Source: Nannocystis pusilla
GTDB lineage: Bacteria > Myxococcota_A > Polyangia > Nannocystales > Nannocystaceae
NCBI RefSeq assembly: GCF_026626665.1
Contig: NZ_JAPNKE010000002.1
Coordinates: forward strand, 3,565,168-3,629,167
Length of the DNA stretch: 64,000 nt
Reading direction: 5' to 3'
Below are positions 7,139-64,000 of this stretch, one piece after another. Every line of letters begins with the position of its first letter. Position 1 is the stretch's first letter. The notes below the pieces were generated by a model. It was not told the origin of the DNA, did not search any database, and saw only the letters and a program-made list of their open reading frames with translations. The position numbers and the translations under genes were made by a program.

Positions 7139-8137
7139 TCAGAAGCGCGCGGACAGGAACATGCCGCCGAAGGTCGGCGAGACGGCGGGCGCGACGCGGA
7201 CGCGCGAGAGCTGCTCCTGGCGCGCCTTCTTGAAGTCGGTCGCGCCGAGGGCGACCAGGGTGACGCCGAGCGCGACGCCGAGGACCCCGGCGACCGCGCC
7301 CGCGGCGGTCATCGTGTCGCCCTGCTTCTTCTGCGCCTCGAGCGGGGCGAGGTACTCGGGGTTGTCGCCGGCCTTGGGCAGCTCGCGGTCGGCCGACTTG
7401 CTGAGGTAGATGCCGCCGCCCATGACGCCGAGGGCCGCGAGGCCGCCGGCGAGGAAGATCGAGCCGGCGATCAGCTCGCCGCGGGCGTTGCGACGGACGG
7501 GGTTGGTGCGCCGCACGAGGTCCGGCAGCGCGCCATCGGCCGCGGTCCGCAGCTCGGTGCTCCACGCGTGCATCGTCTCGAGGTCGTCCGGGTTGACGCG
7601 GATGCCGTCGACCGCCCCGCCGCTGTTGGCCGCGAGCAACGCGTCCGCGCGGTCGATGTGGCGCAGGCTGGCCTCCCACTCGGCCTTGGCCTGGTCGGCG
7701 CTGCGCTTGCGCGCGAGCTTCTGCCGGGCGTCGGCGGCCGCGAGGTGCAGCACCGGGTCGCGCAGGGCCTCGGCCCCGCCGGCGAGCAGGCCGACGGCGC
7801 CCTCGAGGTTGCCGGCGTCGGACAGCTGCTGCGCCTGGTCCTGCAGCGGCGCGCGCTCGGCCTCGGCCTTATCGACCTGAGCCTTGATCATCGCCTCGCG
7901 CGGCTGCGCCTTGGCGGCCTTCTTCTTGCCGCTCCCGCTCTTCTTCTTCGCGGGCCCCGGCGAATCGTCGAGGACGACGGTGTCGTCGTCGGCGGCCGGC
8001 GCGGCCGCCGATTCGGTCTTCCATCCATTCGTGGATTCCCCCGGCTGACCGGCCCACGCGGGCGCCGGCATCGCCAGGGACAATGCGATCCCCACCATCA
8101 GGAGCGAACGGCGCCCCTGCGATCGTACTGTCGACAT
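7139..8137 (-). CDS. Hypothetical secreted/membrane protein (signal peptide, Lys-rich linker, coiled-coil, C-terminal TM helices)
   Basis: 332 aa ORF with an N-terminal signal peptide (LLMVGIALSLAMPAPAWA) and two C-terminal hydrophobic helices. No recognisable domain. Confidence 0.5.
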   Translation of the reverse strand: MSTVRSQGRRSLLMVGIALSLAMPAPAWAGQPGESTNGWKTESAAAPAADDDTVVLDDSPGPAKKKSGSGKKKAAKAQPREAMIKAQVDKAEAERAPLQDQAQQLSDAGNLEGAVGLLAGGAEALRDPVLHLAAADARQKLARKRSADQAKAEWEASLRHIDRADALLAANSGGAVDGIRVNPDDLETMHAWSTELRTAADGALPDLVRRTNPVRRNARGELIAGSIFLAGGLAALGVMGGGIYLSKSADRELPKAGDNPEYLAPLEAQKKQGDTMTAAGAVAGVLGVALGVTLVALGATDFKKARQEQLSRVRVAPAVSPTFGGMFLSARF

Positions 8138-8545
8138 GTGCTCTCCTTGAGGGCCGCGGCCGCGTCATTGCGGCGCGCGGCGACGTTGCTGTCCTACAGG
8201 CCGGCCTTGCATGGAACACACAAGGCTGGCGACGGCCTGGTCGGACCGCGAGAAATAGGATTGGCCATCCTGGCCTAAAAGACAGCCTCCGTGGCAGAGC
8301 ACCTTCCGTGGCGCATGGGGCGGGAAGTCCGCGACGACCGCGGGACCCGACCTGTCACTCGAGTAACGGCACCCGCCCGATCGATCACCGCCCCCGACAA
8401 AAATTTCGAGAAAACCGTGTAGCAGACGTATGACGGCAATTTTTCCGCCGCGTTGCGTGGTTGCCCGGGTCGCCGACGAGCTTTGGGGGCGACAGGCCGC
8501 CGCGCGATCGACTGCACGCATTGCGGCCACCGTCGGGCCGCATTC

Positions 8546-8577
8546 GATCATTTAGTAATTCAGATTACCAAATGATC
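8546..8577. promoter_or_regulatory. AT-rich 32 bp near-perfect palindrome gatcatttagtaat-tcag-attaccaaatgatc inside an AT-rich island (about 8390-8580)
   Basis: Read directly from the sequence: 14 bp inverted arms with one mismatch and a 4 bp spacer. It overlaps the stop codon of the STPK-WD40 gene and lies in the upstream region of the 7139..8137 gene. Candidate operator or terminator. Confidence 0.4.
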
Positions 8578-11500
8578 GCTCGCAGGCGCCGGCCCGCGCC
8601 TCCGCGACGTCGTCGGCCTCTCCGAGGTGGCGCCGGCGCTCCGCGGGCAGCAGGCACGCGCGCGTGGCGGCGGCGAGGCGCGCGCGCAGGCCCTCGCCGG
8701 GCCGCGGCCACACGACGACGCGGCCGTCGGCGCCGGCCGAGGCGAGGCGATCGCCGCCGGCGTCGTACGCGAGGGCGTTGACGCCGCCGCCGTGGCCCGC
8801 GAGCAGCTCGGGCCCGGCGTCGCCCTGCAGCGACCAGAAGAGGAGCGCGCCGTCGGCCGCGCCGGCGACGATCCAGCCGTCGCGCGGGTCCCAGGCCACG
8901 CTCGTCAGCGCCGCCGAGGCCCGCCCCAGCTCGGTGCGCACGCCGGTGGCGGCCGCCACGCGGACAAGCGCCCTGCCTCGCCGGCGACCGCGAGCGCGTC
9001 GCCGGCGGGGCTCCACGCCAGCGCGCGCAGCGGGTGGCCGAGCTCGATGAACACCGTCTGCTCGACGCGCACCAGCACGAAGCCGGAGGCGGTGACCGCC
9101 GCCAGCCGCTCGTCGACCGGCGACCAGGCCATGGCGGTGATGGCCCCGCGCCCCTGCGGCGCGCGGGACGGATCGAGCATGTCCTTGAAGTCATGTCCCG
9201 AAGGCCAGAGGAAGAACGCGCCCTCGCTGCCGCCCGCGGCCAGGCGATCGGCGCGAGGATCCCAGGCCAGGGCGGACACCGGGCGGCGGTCGAGGCTGAC
9301 GCGCCGCGTCGCCCCCTCGCCGCGGGGGATCCAGGTGACCGCGCCGCCGTCGTCGGCGATCGCCAGCTCCTGGCCGTCGCGCCGCCAGGCCAGCGCCAGC
9401 GCGGTGCCGGCGTGGTCGCGCCGGCGCACCGGGCCGTCGTCGGTCGGCAGCAGCCACACGCTGCGCGCGCCGGCGGCGGCCAGGGCGGTGCCGTCGGGGC
9501 TCCACGCGAGCGCGTGCACGGCCGCGCCGAGGTCATGCTCGCGCAAGGCGGCCGGCGCGAGCCGCCACACCCGCGCGCTGCCGTCGTCGCTGCCGGTGAT
9601 CAAGCGGACGCCCACGGGCGCGAACGCCAGCGCCCGCACCGGCCCGGTGTGACCGCGCAGCACGTAGGGGCGCGCGGTCCCGCCGATCCGCCACACCCGC
9701 GCGCTGCCGTCGTCGCTGCCGCTGGCGAACCATCCTGTCCCGAGAGCCAGGCCGGTGACGCCGCCGTCGCCGACCACCGCGGCGACCCGCCGCGGGGTGC
9801 CGTCGACCCGCCAGACCTCGACGCCGCCGTCGTCGCGGCCGATCGCCAGCTGGCGCCCGTTGCGGTCCCACGCCAACGCGCCCACCGCCGCGCCGCGAGC
9901 GACGACCAGGGTCGCGCGGCCCTCCGCGACCACCCAGACCTCGCCGCGCGGGCCGGCCGCGGCCACGCGCGCGCCGTCGGGGCTCCACGCGACCGCCGCG
10001 AGCGGACCCGCGACGCCGCGCAGCGGCGTGACCCGATCGACCGCGACCAGCGACACCCCGCCGCGCGCGTCGGTGCGGAGCTGCTCGCCGCCGGGTCCGC
10101 GCCGCGGATCGGACACGGAGCCGCCTGCCCCCGGCGTGGGCGGCCCGCCGGCCAGCGCGAAGCGGCGGACGTTGCCGGCGGCGTCGACCGTCTCGACCGC
10201 GCCGCGCAGATCTTCGGCGGCCGCGGCAGGCCGTGGGCTGTCCTGCGGGACAGGTGACGTGTCCTCAGGGACAGGCGCACCGGCGACCGGCACCGCCCCG
10301 CTCGCCAGCACGACCTCGCGCGGGCGCGCGTCCGACCTGTCCGCGAGGACAGGCGGATCGACAACCGCCGCGGAGCCGGCCCCGCTCGCCAGCACGACCT
10401 CGCGCAGGTGCGCGTCCGACCTGTCCGCGAGGACAGGCGCACCGGCGCCCGCCGGGAGCCCGCTCGTCAGCACGACCTCGCGCCGGCGCACGTCCGACCT
10501 GTCCGCGCGGCCAGACGCACCAGCGCCCGCCCCGCTCGCCAGCACGACCTCGCGCCGGTGCGCATCCGACCTGTCCTCACGGACAGCTCCCGTCCGCGCG
10601 TTCGACCTGTCCTTGCGGACAGCTCCCGTCCGCGCCTTTGACCTGTCCTCGCGGACAGCCCCCACCGCGCCCGGCACCGCGCTCCTGTCCCCCGGGACAG
10701 CCTCGACCCAGCGCACCGCCGTCACCGCGCCGTCGTGACCGCGCAGGATCGCCTGGCTGATCGGCTCGGCCAGCACGCGCTGAGCCAGCGCGCCCGGCTC
10801 GTCGAGCTCGCGCAGCAGCAGCGCCGCGGCGGTCGGGTCGCGCGGCAGCAGCGAGAACGCGGCGTCGCGGACCCGCAGCGCGTGGGCCTGGCGCTCCGCG
10901 GCCGCGCGCTCGACCGCCAGCTCGCCGGCCTGCGCGTCGGCGGGGGCGCTCTCGGGCGCGGTCGCCTGCGGGGCCGCGGCCGCGCCCGCGCCCGCCTCGG
11001 GCTGCGCCAGCGACACCCCGAGCGCGACCAGGCCCGCCGCGGTGGCCGCCGCGCCGCCGGCGATCAGCCACGTCCGCACGGGCACCGGCTCGGGGTTCTC
11101 GGCGAAGCGCCGCCGCGGCTGCAGGGCCGCGAGCAGCTCCTCCATCGTCGCCCAGCGCTCGGCTGGCTTTTCGGACAGGCCGCGGACGATCGCGCGGCGG
11201 ACGCGCAACGGCACGCGACTTTCGCGCGGAATGGGCGCGATCTCGACCTGTCCGAAGCGCGGAAGCGAGCCGAACGGCCGCAGACCGAACAAACCTTCGA
11301 ACAGCGCCACGCAAAAGCTGAATTGGTCGGAGCGCGGCTCCGCGTTGCCGGTGCGCTGCTGCTCGGGCGCCATGTAGGCGGGCGTGCCGAGGATGCTGCC
11401 GGTGCGCGTCAGCGGCATCAGCTCGTCGTCGAGGGCCTCGCCGAAATCGAGGGCGCAGGTGAGTCCGAAGTCGAGGACGCGCGCGCGGTCGCGGCTGTCG

Positions 11501-12054
11501 ACGAGCACGTTCTCGGGCTTGAAGTCGCGGTGCAGCAGGCCGGCGTGGTGGGCCGCGGCCAGCGCCCGCCCGGCCTGCAGGTACACCGCGAGCACCTCCT
11601 GCCACGGCCGCGGGCGCTCGCGCAGCCACGCCTCGAGGGTCACACCCTCGATCAGCTCCATGGCGATGTAGATTTGGTCGCCCCACGCGCCGACCTCGTA
11701 GATCCGCGCCACGTGCTCGTGCTCGAGGCGTGCCATCGCCCGGGCCTCGCGCAGCAGGCGGGCGCGACCCTGGTCGTCGCCCTGGAGGTGCGGGTGCAGC
11801 AGCTTGATGGCGACGCGGCGATTGAGCTGGGCGTCGACGGCCGCATACACGACGCCCATGGCCCCCTCCCCGAGCCGGCGCTCGACGTGGAAGCGCCCGA
11901 TCATGGTGGGCGCGGCCGGCTCGCCGAACAGCCGGCCCATCACGCGCGCGTGGAGACGATGGACGTCGACGTCACCCCACGTGCCCGCACCTGCGCCGCG
12001 GGCGGCCCTCAAGTCGGGAGGCGTGTCGGGCGGCGTGTGGGGCGGCGTCGACAT
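8552..12054 (-). CDS. Ser/Thr protein kinase - repetitive linker - WD40 beta-propeller fusion (apparent frameshift near 8950)
   Basis: ORF 8905..12237 has kinase motifs (GEGAMGVVY, VAIK, HRDFKPENVL, DFGLT, APE), then about 28 aa tandem protein repeats (DRSDAHRREVVLASGAGA…), then WD40 repeats (WSPDG…). The WD40 region continues in ORF 8552..9016 in another frame; the junction is in a GCC/CC run. Likely start is MSTPPHTPPD at about 12054. Confidence 0.7.
10250..10720. repeat. In-gene tandem DNA repeats (about 78 bp and about 39 bp units) encoding the kinase linker
   Basis: Repeated units such as ccgctcgccagcacgacctcgcgc…gtccgacctgtccgcgaggacaggc, each containing the inverted pair GACCTGTCC/GGACAGG. 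Seen directly in the sequence. Confidence 0.7.
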
Positions 12055-12127
12055 CGTCGGATCGCAGTGAAGATAACAGGCGGAGCGGCCCCGCGGGCGG
12101 CGCGATCGGAGGTAAGATCGAGGCGCC

Positions 12128-12787
12128 ATGGACCCCGACTGGGAACTGCTCTCGGCCTGGCGCAGCGGCGATCGCGGCGCGGGAGAGCGGCTGGTGAAGC
12201 GACACTTCGGCGCGATCGCCCGCTTCTTCCGCAACAAGGTCTCGAGCGAGCACGACGCCGCCGACCTCGTCAGTCAGACCTTCCTCGAGTGCACCAAGGC
12301 GAAGGACGGCTTCCGCGGCGAGACCAGCTTCAAGCGGTTCGTCTTCGCCATCGCCCTCAACGTGCTGCGCCTCTACATCCGCACCAAGCACAAGCGTCAG
12401 GGCGAGGCGCTCGACTTCGGGGCGCTGTGCGCCAAGGACCTGTCGCCGTCGTCGATGAGCTCGATCGTCATGCGCCGGCGCGAGGCCCAGCTGCTCGTGC
12501 TGGCGCTGCGAGAGATCCCGCTCGACCAGCAAATCGTGCTCGAGCTCAACATCTTCGAGGGCCTGTCGGGGCGCGAGATCAGCGAGCTGCTCAGCGTGCC
12601 CGAGGGCACCGTGCGCGGCCGGCTGCGCCTCGGCAAGGACCAGCTGCGGGCCCGCCTCGCCGAGCTGGCCCGCTCGCCGGCCGAGCTCCAGGCCACCCTC
12701 ACCGACCTCGAGGGCTGGGCCGCCAGCATCCGCCGCGCCCTCGACCGCGACGACGGCGACGCCGGTCCGGCCGCGACCGGTTCGTGA
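12128..12787 (+). CDS. ECF (sigma-70 family group 4) RNA polymerase sigma factor
   Basis: 219 aa ORF with region 2 (RHFGAIARFFRNKV…DLVSQTFLE) and region 4 (LSGREISELLSVPEGTVRGRL) signatures. Divergent from the STPK-WD40 gene. Confidence 0.8.
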   Translation: MDPDWELLSAWRSGDRGAGERLVKRHFGAIARFFRNKVSSEHDAADLVSQTFLECTKAKDGFRGETSFKRFVFAIALNVLRLYIRTKHKRQGEALDFGALCAKDLSPSSMSSIVMRRREAQLLVLALREIPLDQQIVLELNIFEGLSGREISELLSVPEGTVRGRLRLGKDQLRARLAELARSPAELQATLTDLEGWAASIRRALDRDDGDAGPAATGS

Positions 12788-12878
12788 GCGCGCGCGCCGG
12801 CGGCCGGCCGCGAGGCTGCTTCGCCGGCCTCCTGCGGAGGACCGCCGCGCTATAGTCGGGCCCCCGAGGACCCCCGAG

Positions 12879-14365
12879 ATGAACGCCACCGGCACCCTCA
12901 GCCGTGCGACCCAGATCGTCTATCGCGTCGGCTCCCGCCACTCGAGCGAGGTCGACACGCTGACGCTCGAGCCCGACGGCCGGGCGACGTGGACCTCGCA
13001 GGGCCGCCACTGCGAGGTGCAGCTGCCGCCCGAGGTCTACGGCGACGTCCTCGGCCGCCTGGCGCAGTACGGCTTCAAGGCGGCGACCGGCCTGCACGGC
13101 GACGCGATGGCCGACTACCAGCACGAGATCGAGGTGCTCGAGGGCCCGAAGAAGAAGTCGCGCTGCACCTTGCGGCTCGGCCACGAGTTCGGCACCTACC
13201 TCGGCGACGCGCCGATCGGCATGAAGGAAGTCGTGGCCCTGCTCGACCGCGTGGCCAGCCGCGTCGAGTCCGGCGCCGACCTGTCCGAATCGCCAGACGC
13301 GCTGATGGGCGCCCTGCTGCGCAACATCGACTTCCCGTACGTCAACCCGCACGGCGAGCCGGGCGCGTTCCTGCTGATCGACCCGCGCGGGCAGGTGCTC
13401 GCCGCCTCGTCGCTGCGGTTCGCCCTGCCCCACGCCAGCGGCCTGTTGCCGTTCCGCGACGGCGACCGCTTCGGCTTCGTCCGCGCCGGCGGCGAGGTCG
13501 CCATCGCCCCGGCCTACGCGCTGACGCTCGGCTTCAGCGAGGGCCTCGCGGCGGTCAAGCTCGACGGCGGCTGGGGCTTCATCGACGTCCGCGGCGAGCT
13601 CGTCATCCCGGCCCGCTTCGCCGCCGCCGCCAGCTTCGCCGACGGCCTCGCGTGCGTGCAGCTCGGCGACCAGACCGGCTACTGCGACCGCGCCGGCGCG
13701 TTCGTCCCGGCCCCCCGCAGGCCTCGCAGCTCGGCCGCTTCGCCGAGGGCCGGGCCCCGTTCCGCGCGCTGTCGCGGATGGGCGTGCCCGCGTGGGGCTA
13801 CATCGATCGCACCGGCCAGGTCGTCGTGCCCGCCGGCTTCGACTACGCCGGCGAGTTCTGCGAGGGCCTCGCCTGCGTCCAGCAGGACGACCTGTTCGGC
13901 TTCATCGACGTGAGCGGCGCCTGGGCCATCGAGCCGCGCTTCACCGACGCCGGCGACTTCCACGAGGACCTCGCCGCCGTCGGCGACAGCGGCCAGTACG
14001 GCTACTGCGACAAGAGCGGCACCGCCGCCGTCGACTTCCGCTTCCTCCGCGCCGGCAACTTCGCCGAGGGCCTGGCCCCGGTGGGCGTCGGCGCCAAGAC
14101 CGGCTTCATCGACCGCGAGGGCCGCATGGTCATCGAGCCGCGCTTCGACCTGGCCCAGAGCTTCAGCGAGGGCCTGGCCGCCGTGCGCGTCGACCACAAG
14201 TGGGGCTTCATCGACCGCACCGGTCGCATCGTCATCGAGCCGATCTACGAGGGCGCGGGCCCGTTCGGCGACGGCGTCGCCTGCGTGCGCAAGTTCGCCG
14301 ACCCGCGCCCGGTGATCCATACCGGGTCGAAGAAGGTCATCATCAACATGAGCAAAAAGACATGA
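12879..14365 (+). CDS. WG-repeat (WG_beta_rep) protein, apparent frameshift in a C7 homopolymer near 13715
   Basis: ORFs 12879..13913 and 12989..14365 both carry repeated 'F.EGLA.V…GKWGFID..G..VI.P.F' units. The frames switch at ggcccccccgcagg. The stop overlaps the rsgA start (ATGA). Confidence 0.6.
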
Positions 14366-16724: not shown

Positions 16725-17175
16725 CTGTCACCTGTGCCCGAGAGCATGTCCACGGGGACATGTCATTTTCAAGGCTGGGCCGTCCCGAGCCTTCGTGCCC
16801 TTGTCCGTGGCACGACCCATAAGACATTTCCATGGAGACATATCCTCCCAAAATCTCCACCACGAGCGCCACCCGCATGCTCTCGATGGCATGGCCATGA
16901 AGACATGTCCTATCGGACAGCACCATCGCAGCGAGCGCCAGCGCCCGGGCACGCTCGAGAACCGGGATACCACGGCCCCGCCACCGCATGCTCCCGATGG
17001 CACGGCCAGAAAGACATGTCCCGAAAGACAGCAACCTCGCAGCGAGCGCCAGCCCTCGCGCCCGGCACGCTCGCCACCCGAGATGACATGTCTTTTTAGA
17101 CATACTCCGCCAGCGAACAACTGCGCATGTCGCACCGGACATGTTCGCTGCGACATGTCCCTCATGCGAGGGCGA
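16725..17175. repeat. Largest array of the GACATGTCC-core intergenic palindromic repeat family, including two tandem units of about 110 bp (about 16870-16980 and 16980-17090)
   Basis: At least 10 copies of (R)GACATGTCC…AAGACA half-sites plus a duplicated block cacc(c)gcatgctc(t/c)cgatggca(t/c)ggcca(t/g)(g)aagacatgtcc…cagcgagcgccagc. Confidence 0.8.
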
Positions 17176-22401: not shown

Positions 22402-22947
22402 ATGCCGACCACCTACCACGGCAGCTGTCACTGCGGCGCCATCCGCTTCGAGGCCGACATCGACCTTGCCGCCGGCATTCGCAAGTGCAACTGCAGCTTC
22501 TGCTGGAAGCTCGGCTACCGCAAGGCGCTGGTGCCCTACCCCGCCGTGCGCATCACCGCCGGCCAGGACGCCGTGAAGGACTACCAGCCGACCCCGCTGC
22601 ACTGGCCGCCCGGCGACATCAACCACTATCACTGCGGCCATTGCGGCGCACACGTGTGCTCGCGCGGCTACCTCGAGAAAGAGATGGGCGGCGACTTCTG
22701 GGCCGTCAACGTCGCCTGCCTCGACGACGCCACCGAGGAGGCGCTGGCCGCCGCGCCCGTCATCTACGAGGACGGCAAGCGCGACCGCCAGGACCGCCCC
22801 CGGCGATCACCGGGTATCTCTGACCGTCCGCGTCAGAGTGCAGCCGCGCAGGTCCGGCGCTCGAGGGCTCGGCAACGACCCGGCACGGCTCACTGCAGCG
22901 CCCGCTCGTCGGCCCGCTCCCCGTCGTCCGTCACAAGCCATGTCTGA
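22402..22947 (+). CDS. GFA (glutathione-dependent formaldehyde-activating / CENP-V-like) family protein; C-terminal end uncertain
   Basis: MPTTYHGSCHCGAIRFE…CNCSFCWKLG…HYHCGHCGAHVC zinc-binding Cys pattern. The tail after about 22810 is low-complexity and Arg-rich. An alternative stop at 22823 is reachable by a 1 nt shift in a C5 run. Confidence 0.55.
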   Translation: MPTTYHGSCHCGAIRFEADIDLAAGIRKCNCSFCWKLGYRKALVPYPAVRITAGQDAVKDYQPTPLHWPPGDINHYHCGHCGAHVCSRGYLEKEMGGDFWAVNVACLDDATEEALAAAPVIYEDGKRDRQDRPRRSPGISDRPRQSAAAQVRRSRARQRPGTAHCSARSSARSPSSVTSHV

Positions 22948-23030
22948 ACGAACATGTGAAGAAGGACATGGTTTCGTGGACATGTCTTATTCAACATGTC
23001 TCTTGGACCATCAACAGAACGCCTGTCCCC
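22935..23030. repeat. Intergenic GACATGTC-core repeat array
   Basis: ccatgtctgaacgaacatgtgaagaaggacatggtttcgtggacatgtcttattcaacatgtctcttgg. Confidence 0.7.
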
Positions 23031-23148
23031 CGGCGGCCCGAAGCCGTGGCTCGAGCCGCCGGCGGAGGTCGCGCGCCGGCGCTTGCTCGGAGTCATCGAC
23101 CGCAGCGCGTCCGCACTCACGCGCGCTCTCGCGTGAACACGTCCGCAC

Positions 23149-24854
23149 TCACGCGCGCTCTCGCGTGAACGCATCGAGCTCGGCGAGCGGCGCCTCGTCG
23201 GCGATCACCCGCGCCAGCGCAGCCACCAGCTCGATCTGCGGATGCCCCTCGCCTCGCGCCCGCGCCACGTTCGCCGTCAGGTCCCACCCCGGCGAGCGGA
23301 CCCCGGCCCTCAGCGCCGCGAGCAGCTGCGGCAGCGCGTCCGGGCACAGCTCCGGCGCGTGCGCGAGCGCGTAGAAGCACAGCTCGCAGCGCAGCGCCGA
23401 CTCCGGCTCCGACGCCTCCAGCGCGCGCGCCAGCAGCTCGCGGCCCTCCGCCGCGCGACCCTCCGCGAGCAGCAGCCGGGCGAAGTTCCCGAGCAAGCTG
23501 CCGTCGTCCGGCTCGATCGCCAGCGCCCGGCGGTACAGCGCCTCCGCCCCGGCCGCATCGACGAACGCGCTGACGCGAAAGTTCGCGTAGTTGCCGAGGT
23601 GGTGCGCGTCCTCCGGCGCCAGCGCGATCGTCTCGCGGTAGCACGCGTCGGCGCGCTCCCGATCGCCGCGGATCAGCGCGAGGAAGTTGGCGAAGTTGCC
23701 GCGATGGTCGGCGTCCTCGCCGTCAGCGGCCAGCGCCCGTTCGTAGTACGCCTCGGCCAGATCGTGCTCGCCGCCCACGTCGCTGAGGAACGCCGCGAAG
23801 TTGCCGAGCATGTCCGCGTGCTCGGGCACCTCCGCCAGAAATTTTCGTAAAAGCCGCGCGCCAGCGGGTTGCCGGCCCGGTGCAGCGCCGTGGCGAAGCT
23901 CGCGTGGATCGGCGCATCGGCCGGCAACGCCTCCACCAGGAGCGAGAACACCGGATCTCCGGCGCCCGGCCCCGCGTGCTCGCGCAACCAGCCCAGCGTC
24001 GCCGCCAGGGACTCGCCGCTCGGCTCGACCACCTTCGCCACCCGCACCAGCGACACGACGCGCGGCCACGCCTCTTCAGCGATCGCCGCCTCGATCGCGC
24101 GGAGGATCGATCGCACCTCGAACCCCGCGTCGAGCACCATCACACGCGCGAGCTCGACGTGCGCCGCGAGGATCGGCCCGCGCTCGCTCGCCCGCTCGTC
24201 CAGGGCCGCGCGCGGGTGCTGCGGGATCACCAGGGACAGCTCGATCCCCGCCGCGCGCCGCCGCCTCGCGCACCGCCCTCAGCTCGTCCTCGCCGACCGG
24301 CAGCGGGCTGCCCACCACCCGCGTCGCCAGCCCCGCGTCCTCGCAGCGACGCACCAGCTCGGCCGCGCCGGCCACGTGCTGGCGATCGAGCGCCGTGAAC
24401 AGCACCACGCGATCGGCGAGCGCCCGCACCCCGCGCTCGGCCGCCCGCGATGAACCAGTCGGCGCGTCGATCAGCACGACGTCGGCGACGTCGGCCCCCG
24501 CGATCGCCCGGCGCAGCTCGTCCCACGCCGCGCCCCGTTCCGCGGCCGCCCACCCGTCCAGTCGATCCCAATATCCGCACCGAGCCGCCCCGCCGGCAGC
24601 ACCCGCAGCCCCTCGCCGATCGCCACGCACCGCTCGACGAGCGCCTGTGCATCGCCCCGACTGGCCGCCCACTCGACGATCCCTTCGCCGTCCGTGGCGG
24701 CGATCCGCGTCAGCCCCGGCGCCTCGAGGTCGAGGTCCACCAGCAGCACCCGCAGCCCGCGCGCCGCCAGCACCCGCCCCACGCCCCACACGGCCAGAGT
24801 GCGCCCCACCCCGCCATGAGCCGACCAGCACGCGATGAACGACGGCGTCTGCAT
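23149..24854 (-). CDS. ParA/MinD-like ATPase (KGGVGR-type deviant Walker A) fused to a C-terminal TPR domain; at least 3 apparent frameshifts
   Basis: N-terminus from the ATG at 24854: MQTPSFIACWSAHGGVGRTLAV…LVDLDLEAPGL. Continues in ORF 24076..24831 (…VVLIDAPTGSS…), then ORF 23673..24230, then the TPR ORF 23149..24069 (…GNFAAFLSDVG…AYYERALA…). One junction is in an aaaatttt run near 23850. Confidence 0.5.
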
Positions 24855-24929: not shown

Positions 24930-25360
24930 CGACATGGCTTCAGAGCCAGATTCACTCGGGTCCCGCGTCCCTGAGCCGCCCATCGCCCCGTCGAGCTAGC
25001 GACATGGCTCCAAGGACATGTCATTCGAGACCGCCGCCTCCGTCTCACCCTTCCCGGGTTTCATACATGTCCTCGAGGACATGTCCTTAAAGGCATCCCG
25101 ACTCGGCCTCCTCCCATGCCGCGGCACCCGAAGTGCCCTTCCACACATGTCCTTCAAGACATACCGTTTCAGCCCTCGCGGTCAAGGCCTCCCGCGATGT
25201 CCGTATGGACATGTCCTTTCAGACACTCCTTTTCTGCCCCCGGCGTCCCGAACGCGTCCTGAAGCCGTCTTCTCCGAGAAATTTCGCCCCAGCCCACGTC
25301 TGCCTGTCCCGGCCTTTCAGACATGCCCTCAAGGACATGTCCTCTCAGACATCCCGAGAC
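24930..25360. repeat. Intergenic array of AGGACATGTCCT-type palindromic repeat units (at least 8 copies)
   Basis: gacatgtcattcgagacc…ctcgaggacatgtccttaaagg…acatgtccttcaagacatacc…ggacatgtcctttcagacactcc…caaggacatgtcctctcagacatccc. Confidence 0.8.
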
Positions 25361-38928: not shown

Positions 38929-38998
38929 AGGACATGTTCTTCAAGACATGTCCTTGTGAAACTTACCCTTTAGACATGTCACATGTGACATGTCCTAT
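38929..38998. repeat. Intergenic GACATGTCC-core repeat array
   Basis: gaggacatgttcttcaagacatgtccttgtgaaacttaccctttagacatgtcacatgtgacatgtcc. Confidence 0.8.
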
Positions 38999-48744: not shown

Positions 48745-48925
48745 GCATGTCCCCCACGACATGCCCTCATGGGCATGTCTTCGGAGACATGTCACATTCG
48801 ACATGCTCGATAAGACCTATCTCTTCGACCATGTCGGGCAGGAGCTCGGCGCCGGGCGTCGCTCGCGGCGGCCGACGATGCTCCGTCCCTCGCCGCAGGG
48901 ATACTACATGTCTCGAGAGACAGCC
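48745..48925. repeat. Intergenic GACATGTC-core repeat array
   Basis: gcatgtcccccacgacatgccctcatgggcatgtcttcggagacatgtcacattcgacatgctcgataagacctatctcttcgaccatgtcggg…catgtctcgagagacagcc. Confidence 0.8.
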
Positions 48926-50374: not shown

Positions 50375-50455
50375 CGCATGTCCCTGGCGCCATGTCCCTG
50401 GCGCCATGCCTCCGAGGGCATGTCTCTCGAGACATGCCCTTTCAGACATTCCCCT
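50375..50455. repeat. Intergenic GACATGTC-core repeat array
   Basis: gcatgtccctggcgccatgtccctggcgccatgcctccgagggcatgtctctcgagacatgccctttcagacattcc. Confidence 0.8.
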
Positions 50456-54941: not shown

Positions 54942-55009
54942 CCCTTCTCCAGGGATGCGCGGCGCCGTCCGCGATGCAAACGCCGCCCGTGCTGCGCGTC
55001 ACGCCTCAC

Positions 55010-55409
55010 AATATATGTCCTAATGGACATGCCCAAACAGACATATGTAAGGGTCGTCGAGGATCCACGTGGCATGTCCTTCGAGACAGGCGACCCTGCC
55101 GAGCAGAGCGCCGCGGAGTCACGGTCGCGGCGAAGGACTCCCTTCCCACGAGCCATCCACCGCCTCGCCCTGCGCCGCCCGCACCGTACTGCTGCATGTC
55201 CCGCAAGACGTGCTCATCGAGACGGCTCGTCACCGTCACCGCGCGCATGCATGTCCTTCAAGACATGCTCATCGAGACATCCCGCCGCCCGCCAATGCAT
55301 GTCCTTCAAGACATGCCCTTCGAGGCATCCTCATTCCCCCATGCATCCGTCTCGCCGCGCCCAGCCCGCATGTCCATCAGGACATGCCCCACGAGACATC
55401 CCCGCCCGC

Positions 55410-55410: not shown

Positions 55411-58122
<2,712 letters not shown>

Positions 58123-58951: not shown

Positions 58952-59263
58952 GTGGATCGCCTGGCGATGCTCCGACAGTTCGTGGCCCAAAAGCCAGGTG
59001 AGGCGTTCCCGCGCTACGGCCTGGCCATGGAGCTGAAGCGCCGCGGGCAGCTCGCCGAGGCGATCGTCGAGTTCCGCGAGCTCATCGCCAAGATCCCCGA
59101 ATACGTGCCGGCCTACTTGATGGCCGGCAACACCCTGGTCGAGGCCGGCGACCGCGACGGCGCCCTGCAGGTCCTCGATCAGGGCGTTCAGGCCGCGCGC
59201 GCGGCCGGCGACGCGCACGCGCTCGGCGAGCTCGAATCCGCCCGCGCCGCGCTGGAAGGGTGA
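58952..59263 (+). CDS. Small TPR-like protein
   Basis: 103 aa. Two TPR-like helix pairs (…AIVEFRELIAKIPEYVPAYLMAGNTLVEAGDRDGALQVLDQGV…). Translationally coupled to the next gene (stop/start overlap). Confidence 0.5.
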   Translation: MDRLAMLRQFVAQKPGEAFPRYGLAMELKRRGQLAEAIVEFRELIAKIPEYVPAYLMAGNTLVEAGDRDGALQVLDQGVQAARAAGDAHALGELESARAALEG

Positions 59264-60180
59264 GCGCCACGTCCAGGCTCGCCGACGCCGCCGCGATCGA
59301 CCTGGTGTTCGCCAGTCCGCGACGGTTGCCCAAGCCCGCGAACCTGCGCGGCCGCGTGGTCGTGCTCGACGTCGCCTTCGCGGCCGAGGGCATCGGCAGC
59401 GGCTTCGAGAAGATCACGGGCAAGTTCCTCGCCGGCCTGGGCGCGCGCCTGGCCCGGTGGGTCGACCACCACGATCACGAGCGCCACGCCCAGTTCCGCG
59501 GCGACCGGCGCTTCGTGCTCCACACCAAGGCCGAGCACGGCGCCTGCCCCGAGATCGTCACGCCGCAGATGGTCGAAGAGACAGGTCCGGTCGACACCAT
59601 CGTCGCCCACTTCGACCTCGACGGCCTCTACTCGGCCGCCAAGTGGCTGCTCCGCGGCGTCGAGCCCTACCCGGGCGCCGACGCCGACGCCCGCGCCGTC
59701 GACACCCGGATCGGCGAGGTCGGCCCGATCGGCGCCCTCGTCGACAAGGCGCTGCGGGCCCACTACGAGGACACCGTCCTCCTCAACAAGATCGTCCGCT
59801 GGCTGGTCGCCGGTCGCCCGCGCGGCGCCGAGCAGGAGGCGATCGCCGCCGCCGCCGCCGACTTCGACGCCATGGCCGCCGAGGCCGCCGCGCTGGCCCG
59901 CGCCTACGTCGTCGAGGATGGCGTCGCCCTCGTGCGCGTGCCCGGCAATCCGCGCTCGTTCGACAAGACCGAGCTGCTGCTGCTCGGCCAGGAGCGCGCC
60001 CCCGTGGCGGTCGTCATCGACGGCCAGACCCTGAACATCGCCGCCAGCTTCGCCAGCGGCCTCGATTTCGTCGCCCTGCTCGGCCTCGGCGGCGGCATGC
60101 CGACGCGCGTCAGCGTGCCCGCCTCGCGCCTCGACGACACGCTCGCCAAGATCCGCGCCGCCCTGCGCGCGCGCGGCTGA
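59260..60180 (+). CDS. Hypothetical protein
   Basis: 306 aa ORF with protein-like composition. Overlaps the upstream stop. No domain recognised. Confidence 0.5.
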   Translation: MSATSRLADAAAIDLVFASPRRLPKPANLRGRVVVLDVAFAAEGIGSGFEKITGKFLAGLGARLARWVDHHDHERHAQFRGDRRFVLHTKAEHGACPEIVTPQMVEETGPVDTIVAHFDLDGLYSAAKWLLRGVEPYPGADADARAVDTRIGEVGPIGALVDKALRAHYEDTVLLNKIVRWLVAGRPRGAEQEAIAAAAADFDAMAAEAAALARAYVVEDGVALVRVPGNPRSFDKTELLLLGQERAPVAVVIDGQTLNIAASFASGLDFVALLGLGGGMPTRVSVPASRLDDTLAKIRAALRARG

Positions 60181-60199
60181 GCTGCCCCTCGGGACTGTC

Positions 60200-60670
60200 G
60201 CATTCGACATGTCCCGAAAGACACTTGTGCCGACAATCTGGTCGGCCGTCCGCCGCGCGTGGTCGACCTGTCCCGAGAGACGTTTTTGTCGACTTGCCGG
60301 TCCGCTGCCCGCCGCGCGGCCGAACCTGCCCCGAGAGATACTTTTTTCGACGGCCGGTCGGCCGTCCCCGCGCGCGGCCGCACCTGTCCCGAGAGACACT
60401 TTTTTCGACGGGCCCGCCGCTGTCCGCCGCGCGTCGAACTGTCTCGAGAGACATTTTTCGACGGGCGGTCGGCTGTCCGCCGCACGCGGGCGACCTGTCC
60501 CGAGAGACACTCTCGCCTCCCGGCCGGCCTCCCGAGCCCTGCACGTGACCGACCTGTCCCGAGAGACACGCTCCGCTCCCGCGGTCACGTGTCCCGGCGC
60601 GCCAGCGCGACATGTCCCGAAAGACATCTCTGTCTCCAGGCCGATCCTGTCGTCGCCAGCCCGCAGGGGG
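60200..60670. repeat. Eight-unit 57-59 bp degenerate tandem repeat array (not CRISPR)
   Basis: Unit (C)GACCTGTCCCGAGAGACAC-TTTTTTCGACGG-GCCGGTCGGCCGTCCGCCGCGCG-GCCG starts at about 60206, 60265, 60323, 60382, 60436, 60492, 60551 and 60608. The whole unit repeats, including the would-be spacer. Confidence 0.85.
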
Positions 60671-60803
60671 CGCTGACGCGCCCTCGGCCCGCGATCTCGC
60701 CCAGATCGAGAGCTCACTTGGTGTTGCAGGTCGGGGACGCAAATAGGACCCTGGCCTCCGCAGTCCGAGTGCCCACCACGGGCCGACCCCCAGGAGAATC
60801 ACA

Positions 60804-61163
60804 ATGTCGCAACGTCCTCGTCTGTCCCTGCTCGCCGCCCTGACGGCGCTGATGCTCCCCGCCGCCGCCTTCGCCGACTCCAACGGCACGGTCGGCAACG
60901 TCGAAGCAGTCACCCTCTACGAGAGCAGCAGCGACAACCACGCCATGTTCAACGGCTCGGTCTCGATCAAGGAGAAGACCGGGCAGAAGCGCGACTACAA
61001 GTGGGGCGGCTCGCTGTGCCCCGGCCGCGAGCTCAGCGCCAACGCGGTCAACCTGCTGTTCGAGGCCCTGCGCGCCAAGAAGCAGGTCGAGGTCACGCCG
61101 ACCTACAAGGCCGGCAACGGCGGCGAGCGCTGCCTCACCGGCTTCAAGCTCGAGAGCCGCTGA
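60804..61163 (+). CDS. Small secreted protein (signal peptide), hypothetical
   Basis: 119 aa. Signal peptide MSQRPRLSLLAALTALMLPAAAFA. Two Cys. Noticeably lower GC than the surroundings. RBS-like caggagaatcacaATG. Confidence 0.55.
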   Translation: MSQRPRLSLLAALTALMLPAAAFADSNGTVGNVEAVTLYESSSDNHAMFNGSVSIKEKTGQKRDYKWGGSLCPGRELSANAVNLLFEALRAKKQVEVTPTYKAGNGGERCLTGFKLESR

Positions 61164-61273
61164 GGCCCCGGCCGGCCGCCGCCCGTCGCCGCTCCCCCGG
61201 CGACGCTCGCCGGCCGGCAACTCTTATGTCTCTTCGGCCATGTCCTTCACGACATGGCCGTTCTTCTACGCGC

Positions 61274-61918
61274 TCACAGCGGCTGCCACTGCAGCGTCTC
61301 GACCGCGATCTCGTAGCCGAACCACCCGTTGACGAGCTTCAGCCGCGACGGCAGCGCCCCGTCCTTCATCCCGCCGCCCTCGTAGGTGACGACGATCTCC
61401 CCGCCCGGCTTGCCGTCCTTGCGCTCGAAGCGGCGCTCGAGCAGCGCCCCGCCCTGCCACACCTCCGTCACCTTCTCCTCGCCGACCTCGCCGCGGTGGG
61501 TCCCGTCGGCCAGCGGCGCCCCCGGCAGCCCGAGGAACTGGACCCGGTGGACGTCGAGCAGCATGAAGCGAGGCGGGAACGGCAGCTTGCCCTCGGGCGC
61601 GAACACGTCGACCTTCACCTCCGCGCCCTGCTGCTTGGCCACGAACGCCTTGGTCGAGAACGGCGTCAGCCCGATCAGCGTCAGCGCGTCGCCCTGCTTC
61701 TGCAGCACCACCTCGCCGCCGATCTCGCGCCCGCGGGCCGTCCCATGCAACCTTTGCCGGGCCATGAAGTCGGGCCCCGTCAGCGTCGTCGCCAGCGCCC
61801 CCGGGTAGTCGGCCTCCGCCAGCTGCGGCGGCGTCGACTCGGCCTCCTGTCCCTTCGCACATGCCCCGAGGAGCATGGCCGCGACGACAGGACCTATCGA
61901 CCATGCTCTCCGGTTCAT
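61274..61918 (-). CDS. DUF3261-like lipoprotein
   Basis: About 214 aa from MNRRAWSIGPVVAAMLLGACAKG (lipobox). Start overlaps the upstream gene's stop. DUF3261 lipoproteins typically accompany MMPL exporters. Confidence 0.5.
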   Translation of the reverse strand: MNRRAWSIGPVVAAMLLGACAKGQEAESTPPQLAEADYPGALATTLTGPDFMARQRLHGTARGREIGGEVVLQKQGDALTLIGLTPFSTKAFVAKQQGAEVKVDVFAPEGKLPFPPRFMLLDVHRVQFLGLPGAPLADGTHRGEVGEEKVTEVWQGGALLERRFERKDGKPGGEIVVTYEGGGMKDGALPSRLKLVNGWFGYEIAVETLQWQPL

Positions 61919-64000
61919 CCGCGCTCCTTCCCCTCGCCCGCGCCGGCCAGCACCAGGGCGGCGGGGGCCAGCACCAGGCTGAGCAGCACCCCGAGCCCGA
62001 CGGTCACCCCGATCGCCTGCAGCGCCGGGCTCTGCGACATCGCCAGCAGCCCGAACGCCAGCACCGTCGACAGGCACGCCAGCAGCACGCTCAGCACCGT
62101 CGCGTCGAAGCCGCCCGGGTCGCGCCGGCTCTCGGCCAGGAACACCCCGTAGTCGACGCCCATGCTGAGCACCAGCAGCAGCGCGACGACGTGCAGAATC
62201 CCGATCGTCATCCCCGAGAGCGCCACCACCGACAGCGCCGTCGCGGCCGCCAGCACGGCCGGGGCGAACGCCGCCAGCGCCAGCCCGAACCGGCGGTAGC
62301 GGGCCCACACCATCGCCAGCACCGCGAACAGGCCGAACACCACCAGCTCGAGCGTGCGCGCGCGGTAGCGGCCGAACGCCGCCTGCATCATGCCCTGCTG
62401 GTCGAAGTAGCGCACCTGCGGCAGGTCGGCCAGGCGGGCCTGCAGCGCCGTCGCGTCGGCGACCCCGCGCAGCAGCGTCACCACCGCCACCTCGCCGCCG
62501 TCGAGCTCGGCCCGGAACGTCCGCGCCGCCTCGGCCAGCGGCGTCGCGGCCAGGTCGGCCGGCCGCATCACGTCTGGCCCATGGGACATGTCCGCGAAGA
62601 ACTTGGCGAACGAGCCGGCGCGGAAGCCCTCGGCCACGAACGCCGCGTCGAGCCGGGCCGGCAGGCTCGGGTCGGCCAGCGCCGCCTGGTTGTCCTTCTG
62701 CAGCGCCGCCGACCACACCAGCGCGTGCAGGCTGCGGAACGCCTCGATCTCGCCGGCCGCCTGGGCCCCGCGCAGGCGCACCGCCGCCGCGTCGTTGCCG
62801 GCCAGCGCCTCCTCCTCGTCGGCCCCGAACGCGACCACGAAGCGCCCCGCGTCCATCCGCGACACCCGCGTCCGCACCCGCTCGTCCTCGGCCAGCATCC
62901 CCGGGTCGAGCGCCGTCAGCAGCCGCACGTCGTCCGACCACTCGATGCGCGGCAGCCCGACCACGCACAGGCCCAGCGCCACCGCCGGCAGCACCGCCAC
63001 CGCCGAGCGCCGGCGTCGCATCCCCGCGACCACCCGCGCCAGCCCGGCCGCGGCGCGCCGCTGCACCCAACCTGGCTTTGGGGCCATGGGCAAAAGGTCA
63101 GGTAGCCAGTAGCGCGTGGCCAGGGCCGCCACCAGCACCCCGATCGAGGCGAACAGCGCCACCTCGCGCAGCCCCGGGAAGCTGGTCCACGCCAGCCCGG
63201 CGAAGCCCGCCACCGTCGTCAGCGCCCCGAGCAGCAGGCCCGGCCAGATCTGCCGCGCGCTCTGGCGCGGCCCGCCGCGCGGGTCGAGCATGTGGTGGTT
63301 GAACAGGTGCACCGAGTAGTCGATGCACACGCCGATGAGCGTCGCCCCGAACGCCAGTGTCAGCCCGTGGACCGCCCCGAACAGCGCCAGGCAGGCCGCC
63401 AGCGCCGCCGCCACGCCGGCCACCAGCGGCGCCAGCGACAGCAGCACCAGCCGCGGCGAGCGGAACATCAGCAGGAACAGCGCGACGATGCCGACCAGCG
63501 AGACCGTGGAGATCCGGCCGATGTCCTCGCGCATGCTGGTCTCGGCCGCCAGAGCGAAGCGAGCCACGCCCGACTGCTCGAGCACCAGGCGCCCGCCCGA
63601 CTGGGCGTCGACCTCGGCGAACGCGGCCTCGATCGCGGCCTGCAGCGGCGCCTGGTCGGCGGCGTCGAACGGCGAGCTGCGGGTCGCCAGCATCACCAGC
63701 GCGTGCTGGTCCTCGGCCACGAAGTGCCCGTCGCGCAGCGCCACTCCGCCGCCCTGGGCCGCCTCGAGCCGGCGCAGCTGGGCCGGATAGGCCAGCAGCG
63801 GGTCGGCCGGCGCGATCTGCTTGATCACCCCCGACGTCGGCAGGCCGAGCTGGCGCCGCAGCTCGCGGGCCGCCGCGCGCAGGCCGTCGTCGGACAACCT
63901 GTCCTGAAGGCCAGCTGCCTCGTCGGCCAGGAGGTAGAACCGCCGCGGGTAGTACAGGTTGTGGATCGCCTCGGCGTGCAGTTCGCCCGGCCCGGTGCGC
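61915..64000 (-). CDS. MMPL/RND-superfamily membrane transporter, 5'-partial (start lies beyond the window end)
   Basis: 660 aa ORF 61915..63897 is open to the window edge. Two 6-TM bundles with intervening periplasmic domains, as in MMPL exporters. Confidence 0.65.
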   Translation of the reverse strand, partial: RTGPGELHAEAIHNLYYPRRFYLLADEAAGLQDRLSDDGLRAAARELRRQLGLPTSGVIKQIAPADPLLAYPAQLRRLEAAQGGGVALRDGHFVAEDQHALVMLATRSSPFDAADQAPLQAAIEAAFAEVDAQSGGRLVLEQSGVARFALAAETSMREDIGRISTVSLVGIVALFLLMFRSPRLVLLSLAPLVAGVAAALAACLALFGAVHGLTLAFGATLIGVCIDYSVHLFNHHMLDPRGGPRQSARQIWPGLLLGALTTVAGFAGLAWTSFPGLREVALFASIGVLVAALATRYWLPDLLPMAPKPGWVQRRAAAGLARVVAGMRRRRSAVAVLPAVALGLCVVGLPRIEWSDDVRLLTALDPGMLAEDERVRTRVSRMDAGRFVVAFGADEEEALAGNDAAAVRLRGAQAAGEIEAFRSLHALVWSAALQKDNQAALADPSLPARLDAAFVAEGFRAGSFAKFFADMSHGPDVMRPADLAATPLAEAARTFRAELDGGEVAVVTLLRGVADATALQARLADLPQVRYFDQQGMMQAAFGRYRARTLELVVFGLFAVLAMVWARYRRFGLALAAFAPAVLAAATALSVVALSGMTIGILHVVALLLVLSMGVDYGVFLAESRRDPGGFDATVLSVLLACLSTVLAFGLLAMSQSPALQAIGVTVGLGVLLSLVLAPAALVLAGAGEGKERG

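Follow-up and report, generated by a model that had tools for sequence, protein, structure and literature searches.

An intergenic array of eight short cores at 60206-60626 of the window (the whole 64,000-nucleotide stretch of DNA analysed here, from the myxobacterium Nannocystis pusilla, family Nannocystaceae; 73% GC) is best explained as a non-coding, strain-variable minisatellite derived from one member of a genus-specific family of REP-like palindromes, TGTCY-N4-RGACA. We put the probability of this explanation at roughly 70%. The habits of the family are those of REP-like extragenic repeats and not those of promoter elements or strand-specific RNA signals. The palindrome family and the array together add an undescribed member to a familiar class of bacterial repeats; a literature search covering Nannocystis repeats, myxobacterial REP sequences and RAYT found no description of the family, and the genome note for N. 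exedens speaks of repeats only as large regions left unresolved. Nannocystis genomes are very large (12-13 Mb), and the family accounts for a visible share of their intergenic DNA; the locus, with its 1 to 8 copies, is usable for strain typing. It also carries a warning for annotation: ORFs called over such arrays, for example an 87-aa call in N. exedens, are spurious. A new mechanism would come into play only if a protein that recognises the core were found.

The eight units and their flanking genes

The core of the array is 18-19 nt long, GAC(A/C)TGTCCCGA(G/A)AGACA, and its eight copies start at 60206, 60265, 60323, 60381, 60436, 60492, 60551 and 60609 on the + strand, each matching GACMTGTCYCGARAGAYR with 0-2 mismatches. 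The distance from core to core is 55-59 bp; TRF reported a repeat of period 58 with 5.4 copies and 76% matches at 60204-60511, and a degenerate pattern of the core matched 16 times in the window versus 0.09 expected from shuffles. The regularly spaced, eight-copy array of a preliminary description made from the same DNA was thus recovered, as was its location between a hypothetical gene and a secreted-protein gene. Cores 1 and 8 are the GACATGTCC variant, and since this variant recurs through the window, the tie to a dispersed repeat family that had been claimed for the first and last copies also holds. Six of the eight cores read ACCTGTCCCGAGAGACAC and make poor palindromes, with stems of 4 bp. 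The cores are all direct (+), and the sole inverted copy (TGCCCCTCGGGACTGTC, - strand), located at 60183..60199 by an inverted-repeat search, lies 3 nt 3' of the stop codon of the upstream gene and is also present at orthologous loci.

When the eight units were aligned, 14 columns were invariant, nearly all of them within the core. Pairwise identity across the units was 84% for the core and 56% for the spacers, giving a whole-unit mean of 64% (range 51-80%). The spacers of units 1-5 (60202-60260, 60261-60318, 60319-60376, 60377-60431 and 60432-60487, all +) were 72% identical, whereas the figure was ~45% when the spacers of units 6-8 (60488-60546, 60547-60604 and 60605-60662, also +) were compared with those of units 1-5 or among themselves. 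Homology over the full unit length holds for units 1-5, which, judged by spacer identity and the TRF period of 58, are true tandem duplicates of one unit type; units 6-8 have the same core and unrelated spacers. The unit had previously been described as core, T-run, CGACGG and a GC-palindromic tail. From the spacer identities, this full description fits units 2-5, and unit 1 loosely, but not units 6-8.

ORFs that span the array, such as the 155-aa frame at 60209-60676, have a flat GC1/2/3 of ~0.7 compared with a GC3 of 0.94-0.96 in the flanking genes, from which we conclude that the array is non-coding; a coding ORF across it was ruled out on this basis. The upstream gene (59260..60180, +; GC3 0.96) encodes a 306-aa conserved hypothetical protein with 100% identity to N. 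pusilla OV079_15875, and its close homologues across the Nannocystaceae served as the anchor for fetching orthologous loci. The downstream gene (60804..61163, +; 67.5% GC) translates to a 119-aa protein with a signal peptide. It was found in all Nannocystis loci fetched and only where the array occurs, and is missing after the 306-aa gene in loci L007, L019, L020 and L021; these more distant Nannocystaceae, a metagenomic relative (84% amino acid identity), Enhygromyxa salina, Plesiocystis pacifica and a MAG, lack the array as well. Pfam and NCBIfam searches returned no family for the 306-aa and 119-aa proteins or for a 200-aa neighbour; genes neighbouring the array encode TPR, VWA, DUF3261 and MMPL proteins, and no partition or replication genes lie near it.

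Searches for known signals at the locus were largely empty. Rfam, applied to the whole window at gathering thresholds and to 60000-61400 at E-value thresholds, gave nothing relevant, and there were no tRNA or tmRNA genes. A promoter scan at the locus found no sigma-70 consensus, and inspection by eye of the region upstream of the 119-aa gene found no sigma-54 -24/-12 motif. The putative promoter or 5'UTR of the 119-aa gene, which lies outside the repeat at 60627..60803 (+), is nearly invariant across 7 Nannocystis genomes and, tested as a structured leader in these 7 genomes, showed no compensatory changes.

Copy number at the orthologous locus

The number of cores at the orthologous locus ranged from 1 to 8 across eight Nannocystis assemblies. 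The window and ERR2215891 have eight cores, the SRR27868863 relative and N. bainbridge five, Nannocystis sp. RBIL2 and N. pusilla CP185339 four, N. exedens three plus one decayed position (~4), and Nannocystis sp. SCPEA4 a single core. Because copy number differs at the orthologous locus, as judged by comparison between strains, the array is a variable-number tandem repeat, the behaviour for which the preliminary description had suggested looking in related strains. Its eight cores at 55-59 bp also have the head-to-tail layout of regularly spaced units of ~10-100 bp by which such repeats are recognized.

By position, units 6, 7 and 8 of the window are the orthologues of units 2, 3 and 4 of the four-copy strains, with spacers that are 84-89% identical (L001), and the single unit 1 of RBIL2 and CP185339 is the counterpart of all five window units 1-5. 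Unit 8 is conserved across all Nannocystis genomes examined and, together with TCTCTGTCTCCAGGCCG and the ~180 bp that lead down to the 119-aa start codon, is almost invariant in 7 genomes. This last unit is conserved like the adjacent promoter region, so at least one unit may be regulatory.

We propose that the array grew once two cores lay ~58 bp apart: blocks of core plus spacer would then have been amplified and deleted as the 18-19 nt cores mispaired by strand slippage or recombined unequally. The core itself would persist as the basis on which the family is maintained, either as a small DNA or RNA hairpin or through a recognising protein, as with REP elements, and the extra units would have little or no specific function. 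At the two ends of the array, the strong inverted pair on the 5' side may act as a hairpin at the 3' end of the upstream gene, and the control region of the 119-aa gene may include the invariant last unit. Since six of the eight cores are poorer palindromes than the family archetype yet well conserved, hairpin stability is not the explanation for their conservation; sequence-specific protein binding could be, and this is the strongest argument for such recognition. Against this account of the array, no transposase or other mobilising protein was found at this array or at seven others.

The Nannocystis palindrome family and known bacterial repeats

The palindrome TGTCY-N4-RGACA occurs 41 times in the 64-kb window versus 0.09 in shuffles, and 28 of these 41 copies lie outside called genes. 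GACATGTC is found 27 times, against about 0.4 expected from base composition by our own arithmetic, and the palindrome is often lengthened to GACATGTC...GACATGTC at a 14-bp phase. Family members form clusters between genes, as a rule of two to five GACATGYCC-N4-R units that follow this 14-bp phase, and neighbouring palindromic arms in these clusters can pair over a loop of 4-6 nt that is often T-rich. The density of the family is about 0.6 per kb in the window and 0.3-0.9 per kb in every Nannocystis locus fetched, compared with 0-0.08 per kb in Enhygromyxa, Plesiocystis and two MAG or metagenome relatives. The earlier suggestion that the array is a satellite derived from a REP-like element is supported here, as the core is one of a dispersed family of palindromes restricted to the genus and the copy number of the array varies between strains.

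Within the window, family members are present in 5-6 of the 7 convergent intergenic regions, in 7 of the 20 tandem ones and in 1 of the 5 divergent ones, a 3'-end bias that rests on genes mapped roughly by GC3 in this single 64-kb stretch. They often begin 3-40 nt from a stop codon. In a cluster downstream of the VWA gene, unit number and sequence differ even between strains whose proteins are ~98% identical, and the same palindromes also occur in frame inside the coding linker of a kinase in the window, the kinase-WD40 gene at 8905-12237.

In a genome collection with each species represented once, we searched for pairs of exact cores separated by 35-55 bp; the nine loci recovered all belong to Nannocystis (exedens, radixulma, punicea, bainbridge and RBIL2). 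Seven of the nine are non-orthologous to the present locus and carry 2-10 cores spaced 30-134 bp; the scan pattern fixed the period of the seeding pair at 49-69 bp, and the common spacing of ~55 bp is therefore partly an ascertainment effect. Spacers are alike within each of these arrays, near-identical in the case of L015, and unrelated between arrays, which is the pattern that slippage or recombination between cores would produce. Relative to neighbouring genes, the cores are sense in four of eight arrays and antisense in the other four. The genes flanking the other arrays are functionally unrelated (a decarboxylase, a TetR regulator, a glycosyl hydrolase of family 3, kinases and DUF4215 proteins), and no recurrent gene partner, transposase or cas gene lies beside this array or the seven others.

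The asymmetric CCCGAGAG centre of the palindrome is kept across loci and species, and the first flanking pair covaries (A-T or C-G) across 96-126 instances, the observed count being reached in 13 of 2000 and 8 of 3000 shuffles. This suggests that pairing matters, and the palindrome is kept within subfamilies through A-T or C-G at this pair. Covariation of mirror positions past the first flanking pair, or at the inner C/A position, was not significant. The flank consensus before TGTC is G-(A/G)-(C/G)-(A/C) over 96 instances.

Among known systems, the REP, BIME and REPIN sequences of Escherichia coli, Pseudomonas and Stenotrophomonas come closest. Like them, the Nannocystis family consists of short, imperfect extragenic palindromes with a bias to gene 3' ends, in hundreds to thousands of copies within a narrow taxon, clustered and variable between strains; it thereby agrees with the usual definition of REP sequences as short imperfect extragenic palindromes of high copy number and restricted taxonomic range. 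The start of the array also recalls a REPIN doublet in that one inverted pair forms a long hairpin. However, the Nannocystis core is only 14-18 nt long, none of the GTAG/GTGG-type 5' tetranucleotides lies beside it in the 96 instances, the array cores are direct where those of BIMEs alternate, the GACATGYC motifs follow a 14-bp phase, and no RAYT transposase adjoins this array or the seven others.

The alternation of core and spacer has a parallel in the NIMEs of Neisseria, in which palindromic dRS3 repeats of ~20 bp alternate with variable RS segments of 50-150 bp in intergenic regions. This array and the seven non-orthologous ones have a comparable build, with an arm-N-arm palindromic core of ~20 bp alternating with variable segments. 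The likeness is one of analogy, not of membership: dRS3 reads ATTCCC-N8-GGGAAT and the Nannocystis core TGTCCC-GA-GAGACA, the Nannocystis spacing is shorter (30-130 bp), our viral-contig scan gave no link to phages, and nothing pointed to phage integration or recombinase targeting. Pneumococcal BOX elements (with their variable boxB) and mycobacterial MIRU-VNTR loci similarly present intergenic units of 40-60 bp in strain-variable number between co-directional genes, and likewise lend themselves to strain typing, although their units are conserved over the full length, whereas the core alone is common across the present array and loci; MIRUs, moreover, often carry small overlapping ORFs, of which none was seen in the Nannocystis array. 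Plasmid centromere and iteron arrays, such as F sopC (12 x 43 bp), share the tandem units with one short inverted repeat each in fixed phase; the Nannocystis array, unlike these, is chromosomal and lies between ordinary genes, its core is dispersed at ~0.6 per kb and its copy number is unstable. MrpC/CRP-type sites read GTGTC-N8-GACAC, and a resemblance to them was set aside because the half-site spacing differs (N6 between TGTC and GACA).

Regulatory, terminator and RNA readings of the cores

The cores could instead be operator or enhancer sites of a dimeric DNA-binding protein (CRP-, GntR- or TetR-like, or nucleoid-associated), with copy number setting the dose of the 119-aa gene. The core is a 5-N4-5 inverted repeat, a size typical for dimeric helix-turn-helix sites; its asymmetric centre is conserved, the cores are far more conserved than the spacers, and even poor palindromes keep their sequence. 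In addition, the array lies upstream of the 119-aa gene and co-occurs with it, and the unit nearest to this gene is invariant in 7 genomes. Operator and iteron arrays, however, are confined to promoter regions with conserved number and phasing, and the Nannocystis cores depart from this pattern: (i) the family fills convergent intergenic regions, which have no promoters, and is rare in divergent ones (1 of 5); (ii) other arrays flank unrelated genes in both orientations, often 3-40 nt after a stop codon; (iii) close relatives have anywhere from 1 to 8 copies next to an unchanged promoter region; (iv) about 0.6 sites per kb far exceeds what a specific regulon would need; and (v) the same palindromes lie in frame within a coding linker. 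We therefore consider this explanation unlikely for the array, although it stands ahead of the other alternatives.

A broader version, to which we give slightly less credit still, would make the asymmetric core TGTCCCGAGAGACA the recognition site of an abundant genus-specific protein. The arrays, including those in frame in the kinase linker, would then be its products or landing pads, and the copy number upstream of the secreted-protein gene would act as a heritable expression dial. Candidates would be a domesticated transposase or recombinase, a nucleoid-associated protein or a DNA-uptake receptor, and the density of uptake signal sequences does resemble the 0.6 per kb of the family.

The preliminary description had also attributed to each unit two hairpin-forming segments and, with the T-run, the look of an iterated terminator or attenuator. 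In this case, each unit would be a hairpin followed by a T-tract, and the array a series of intrinsic terminators or an attenuator. The T-runs are indeed placed accordingly: units 2-5 have T5-T6 directly after the core, and only eight runs of at least five Ts occur in the window, four of them in the array. The whole region also folds better than shuffles, with z-scores of -3.1 (+) and -4.0 (-), but palindrome-rich DNA would give the same excess. Hairpins of single cores are weak, at -2.2 to -3.7 kcal/mol on the + strand, where one core does not fold, and -1.3 to -6.9 kcal/mol on the - strand. Folded separately, the units gave z-scores of -3.0 to +1.6 on both strands, scattered around zero with no common structure, and RNAalifold on all eight recovered only a 4-bp TGTC/GACA stem with no covariation. 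The claim of two hairpin-forming segments per unit is therefore weak. The only strong hairpin of the region is formed by the inverted copy with core 1 (60181-60230; -18.8 kcal/mol on the + strand, -28.7 on the - strand).

Intrinsic (Rho-independent) terminators need a G+C-rich stem of at least 5 pairs followed by a T/U tract, and our scan found no such site in 60181-60803. No more than 4-5 pairs make up the stem that precedes the T-run on the sense strand, and T-runs are present in only half of the units: there is none in units 1 and 6-8, and most of the orthologous arrays lack them, as do those at other loci. Of the arrays elsewhere, half run antisense to their genes, and neither a leader peptide nor alternative-pairing logic accompanies the array. 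Taken together, an iterated terminator or attenuator is very improbable. The only match of the terminator scan within 59000-62000 was a family member 3' of the 119-aa gene, at 61235..61260 (+): GGCCATGTCC-TTCAC-GACATGGCC followed by TTCTTCT, which does resemble an intrinsic terminator, with a 10-bp stem, a T-rich tail and a folding energy of -18.7 kcal/mol, and which is kept in loci L001, L002, L005 and L018.

The T-runs have a different counterpart in sister strains. The corresponding unit of RBIL2, CP185339 and the SRR27868863 relative is GAGAGACA-TTTT(T)-TGTCTCC, so that GAGACA-TTTT-TGTCTC (L001, L002 and L018) forms a second palindrome that uses the GAGACA arm and is looped by the Ts. Unit 8 is laid out in this way too, except that TCTC replaces the Ts. 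In the window strain, the 3' arm of this second palindrome appears to have been replaced by CGACGG, leaving an orphan T-run; the run would thus be the remnant of a loop and not a terminator tail. Two other T-runs of the window, at 2058 and 17093, are likewise loops between the GACATG arms of family clusters.

The length of these runs is affected by the assembly. A Logan short-read assembly of ERR2215891, which encodes an identical 306-aa protein and matches the window at 99.8% identity over 6 kb, differs from it at 11 places. At all 11, the window has a deletion in a homopolymer or dinucleotide run, and seven of these deletions fall within the intergenic region that holds the array. Inside the units, ERR2215891 has T7 or T8 where the window has T6, T6 where it has T5, and an additional CG dinucleotide. 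The window assembly thus under-calls homopolymers, and the T-runs of the array are probably longer than the window shows, with T7 or T8 in place of T6 (T6-T8 over units 2-5). The internal T6 that had been singled out as striking in so GC-rich a genome is of a kind that is rare in this 73% GC window, but its length is probably too short as given.

Less probable still than a series of terminators is the reading that the array is transcribed and cut at the cores into small RNAs, in the manner of a CRISPR-like or other repeat-spacer RNA system. A partly palindromic core of 14-19 nt does alternate with segments of 36-45 nt, and the spacers differ between arrays. Within an array, however, the spacers are homologous (72% in units 1-5, near-identical in L015), while CRISPR arrays combine near-identical repeats of 23-47 nt with unique spacers and a cas/leader context; the core, at 14-19 nt and 84% identity, is shorter than any CRISPR repeat. 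No cas genes accompany this array or the seven others, Rfam returned no match, and orientation is mixed. In viral contigs, a scan with a 15-mer of the core yielded 21 single matches, in low-GC contigs, consistent with chance.

Finally, expansion or collapse during assembly, for which the systematic homopolymer deletions in the window (seven in the intergenic region of the array) might speak, can be dismissed almost entirely, because the independent short-read assembly of ERR2215891 has all eight units in the same order, and related arrays of 1-5 units are present in six other genomes. Homopolymer errors in the window assembly do frameshift genes, as in the VWA gene, which is interrupted by a deletion at 57093 and is intact (941 aa) in other strains.

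Sequence flanking the eight-unit array

The array at 60206-60626, built of TGTCY-N4-RGACA palindromes, is followed by a region (60627-60803, e.g., GGTGTTGCAGGTCGGGGACGCAAATAGGAC) that lies 5' of the 119-aa signal-peptide protein gene (60804-61163, + strand) and hardly varies among seven Nannocystis genomes. Within this region, no match to the sigma-70 consensus or to an Rfam family was found, and no covariation was detected across the seven genomes. Beyond the 119-aa gene, a hairpin of the same palindrome family at 61235-61260, GGCCATGTCC-TTCAC-GACATGGCC followed by TTCTTCT (fold, -18.7 kcal/mol), lies where the 119-aa and DUF3261 genes converge. No other terminator-like site was found within 59-62 kb, and the hairpin is kept in four other genomes.

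The genes further downstream (61274-64000 in the window; 7789-12921 at L001, the orthologous locus of a four-copy strain) encode DUF3261, an MMPL transporter, a LolA-like protein, a 4HBT thioesterase, and an aromatic ammonia-lyase, a set that resembles clusters for the export and biosynthesis of lipid pigments of the aryl-polyene or flexirubin type. In N. exedens, a GST gene is inserted after the 119-aa gene. In the public annotation of this species, an ORF of 87 aa spans the orthologous array (L003, 6953-7216); it is probably a spurious gene call, because the equivalent ORFs in the window show flat codon-position GC.

Differences from an independent assembly

Compared with the short-read assembly of run ERR2215891, which carries the same eight units, all 11 differences are deletions in the window within homopolymer or dinucleotide runs (at 57093, 58120, 60312-60453, 60786, and 61193). 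As every difference is of this kind, the deletions are likely to be unpolished long-read errors. The one at 57093 breaks the 941-aa VWA gene, intact in other strains, into two ORFs (55472-56995 and 56992-58122).

Palindromes elsewhere in the window

A second tandem array, made of the symmetric palindrome version CTGTCC-N4-GGACAG, lies at 10230-10700 within a minus-strand ORF (8905-12237), which encodes a Ser/Thr kinase-WD40 protein; the array falls in the linker of this protein, at about residues 513-669. Its periods of 84, 78, and 36 nt are each divisible by 3, and the in-frame array encodes peptide repeats such as VLADRSDA..REVVLASGAG, with a GC3 of 0.85 compared to 0.90-0.96 in the parts of the ORF on either side. 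Such amplification of REP-like palindromes inside a coding region is unusual.

Family members are also dispersed as GACATGYCC-N4-R units in a 14-bp phase, grouped in intergenic clusters at nine sites: 1024-1075, 2024-2080, 16745-17160, 22939-23000, 24931-25352, 38931-38996, 48746-48922, 50377-50450, and 54990-55400. The window has 27 occurrences of GACATGTC, where ~0.4 would be expected. Several clusters contain higher-order repeats (e.g., at 55250 and 55298, with a period of 48 bp), and the 54990-55400 cluster is rearranged between strains despite ~98% protein identity. Separately, a perfect tandem duplication of 32 bp (two copies of CGTCCGCACTCACGCGCGCTCTCGCGTGAACA) at 23108-23170 carries a palindrome of its own and has no relation to the dispersed palindrome family.
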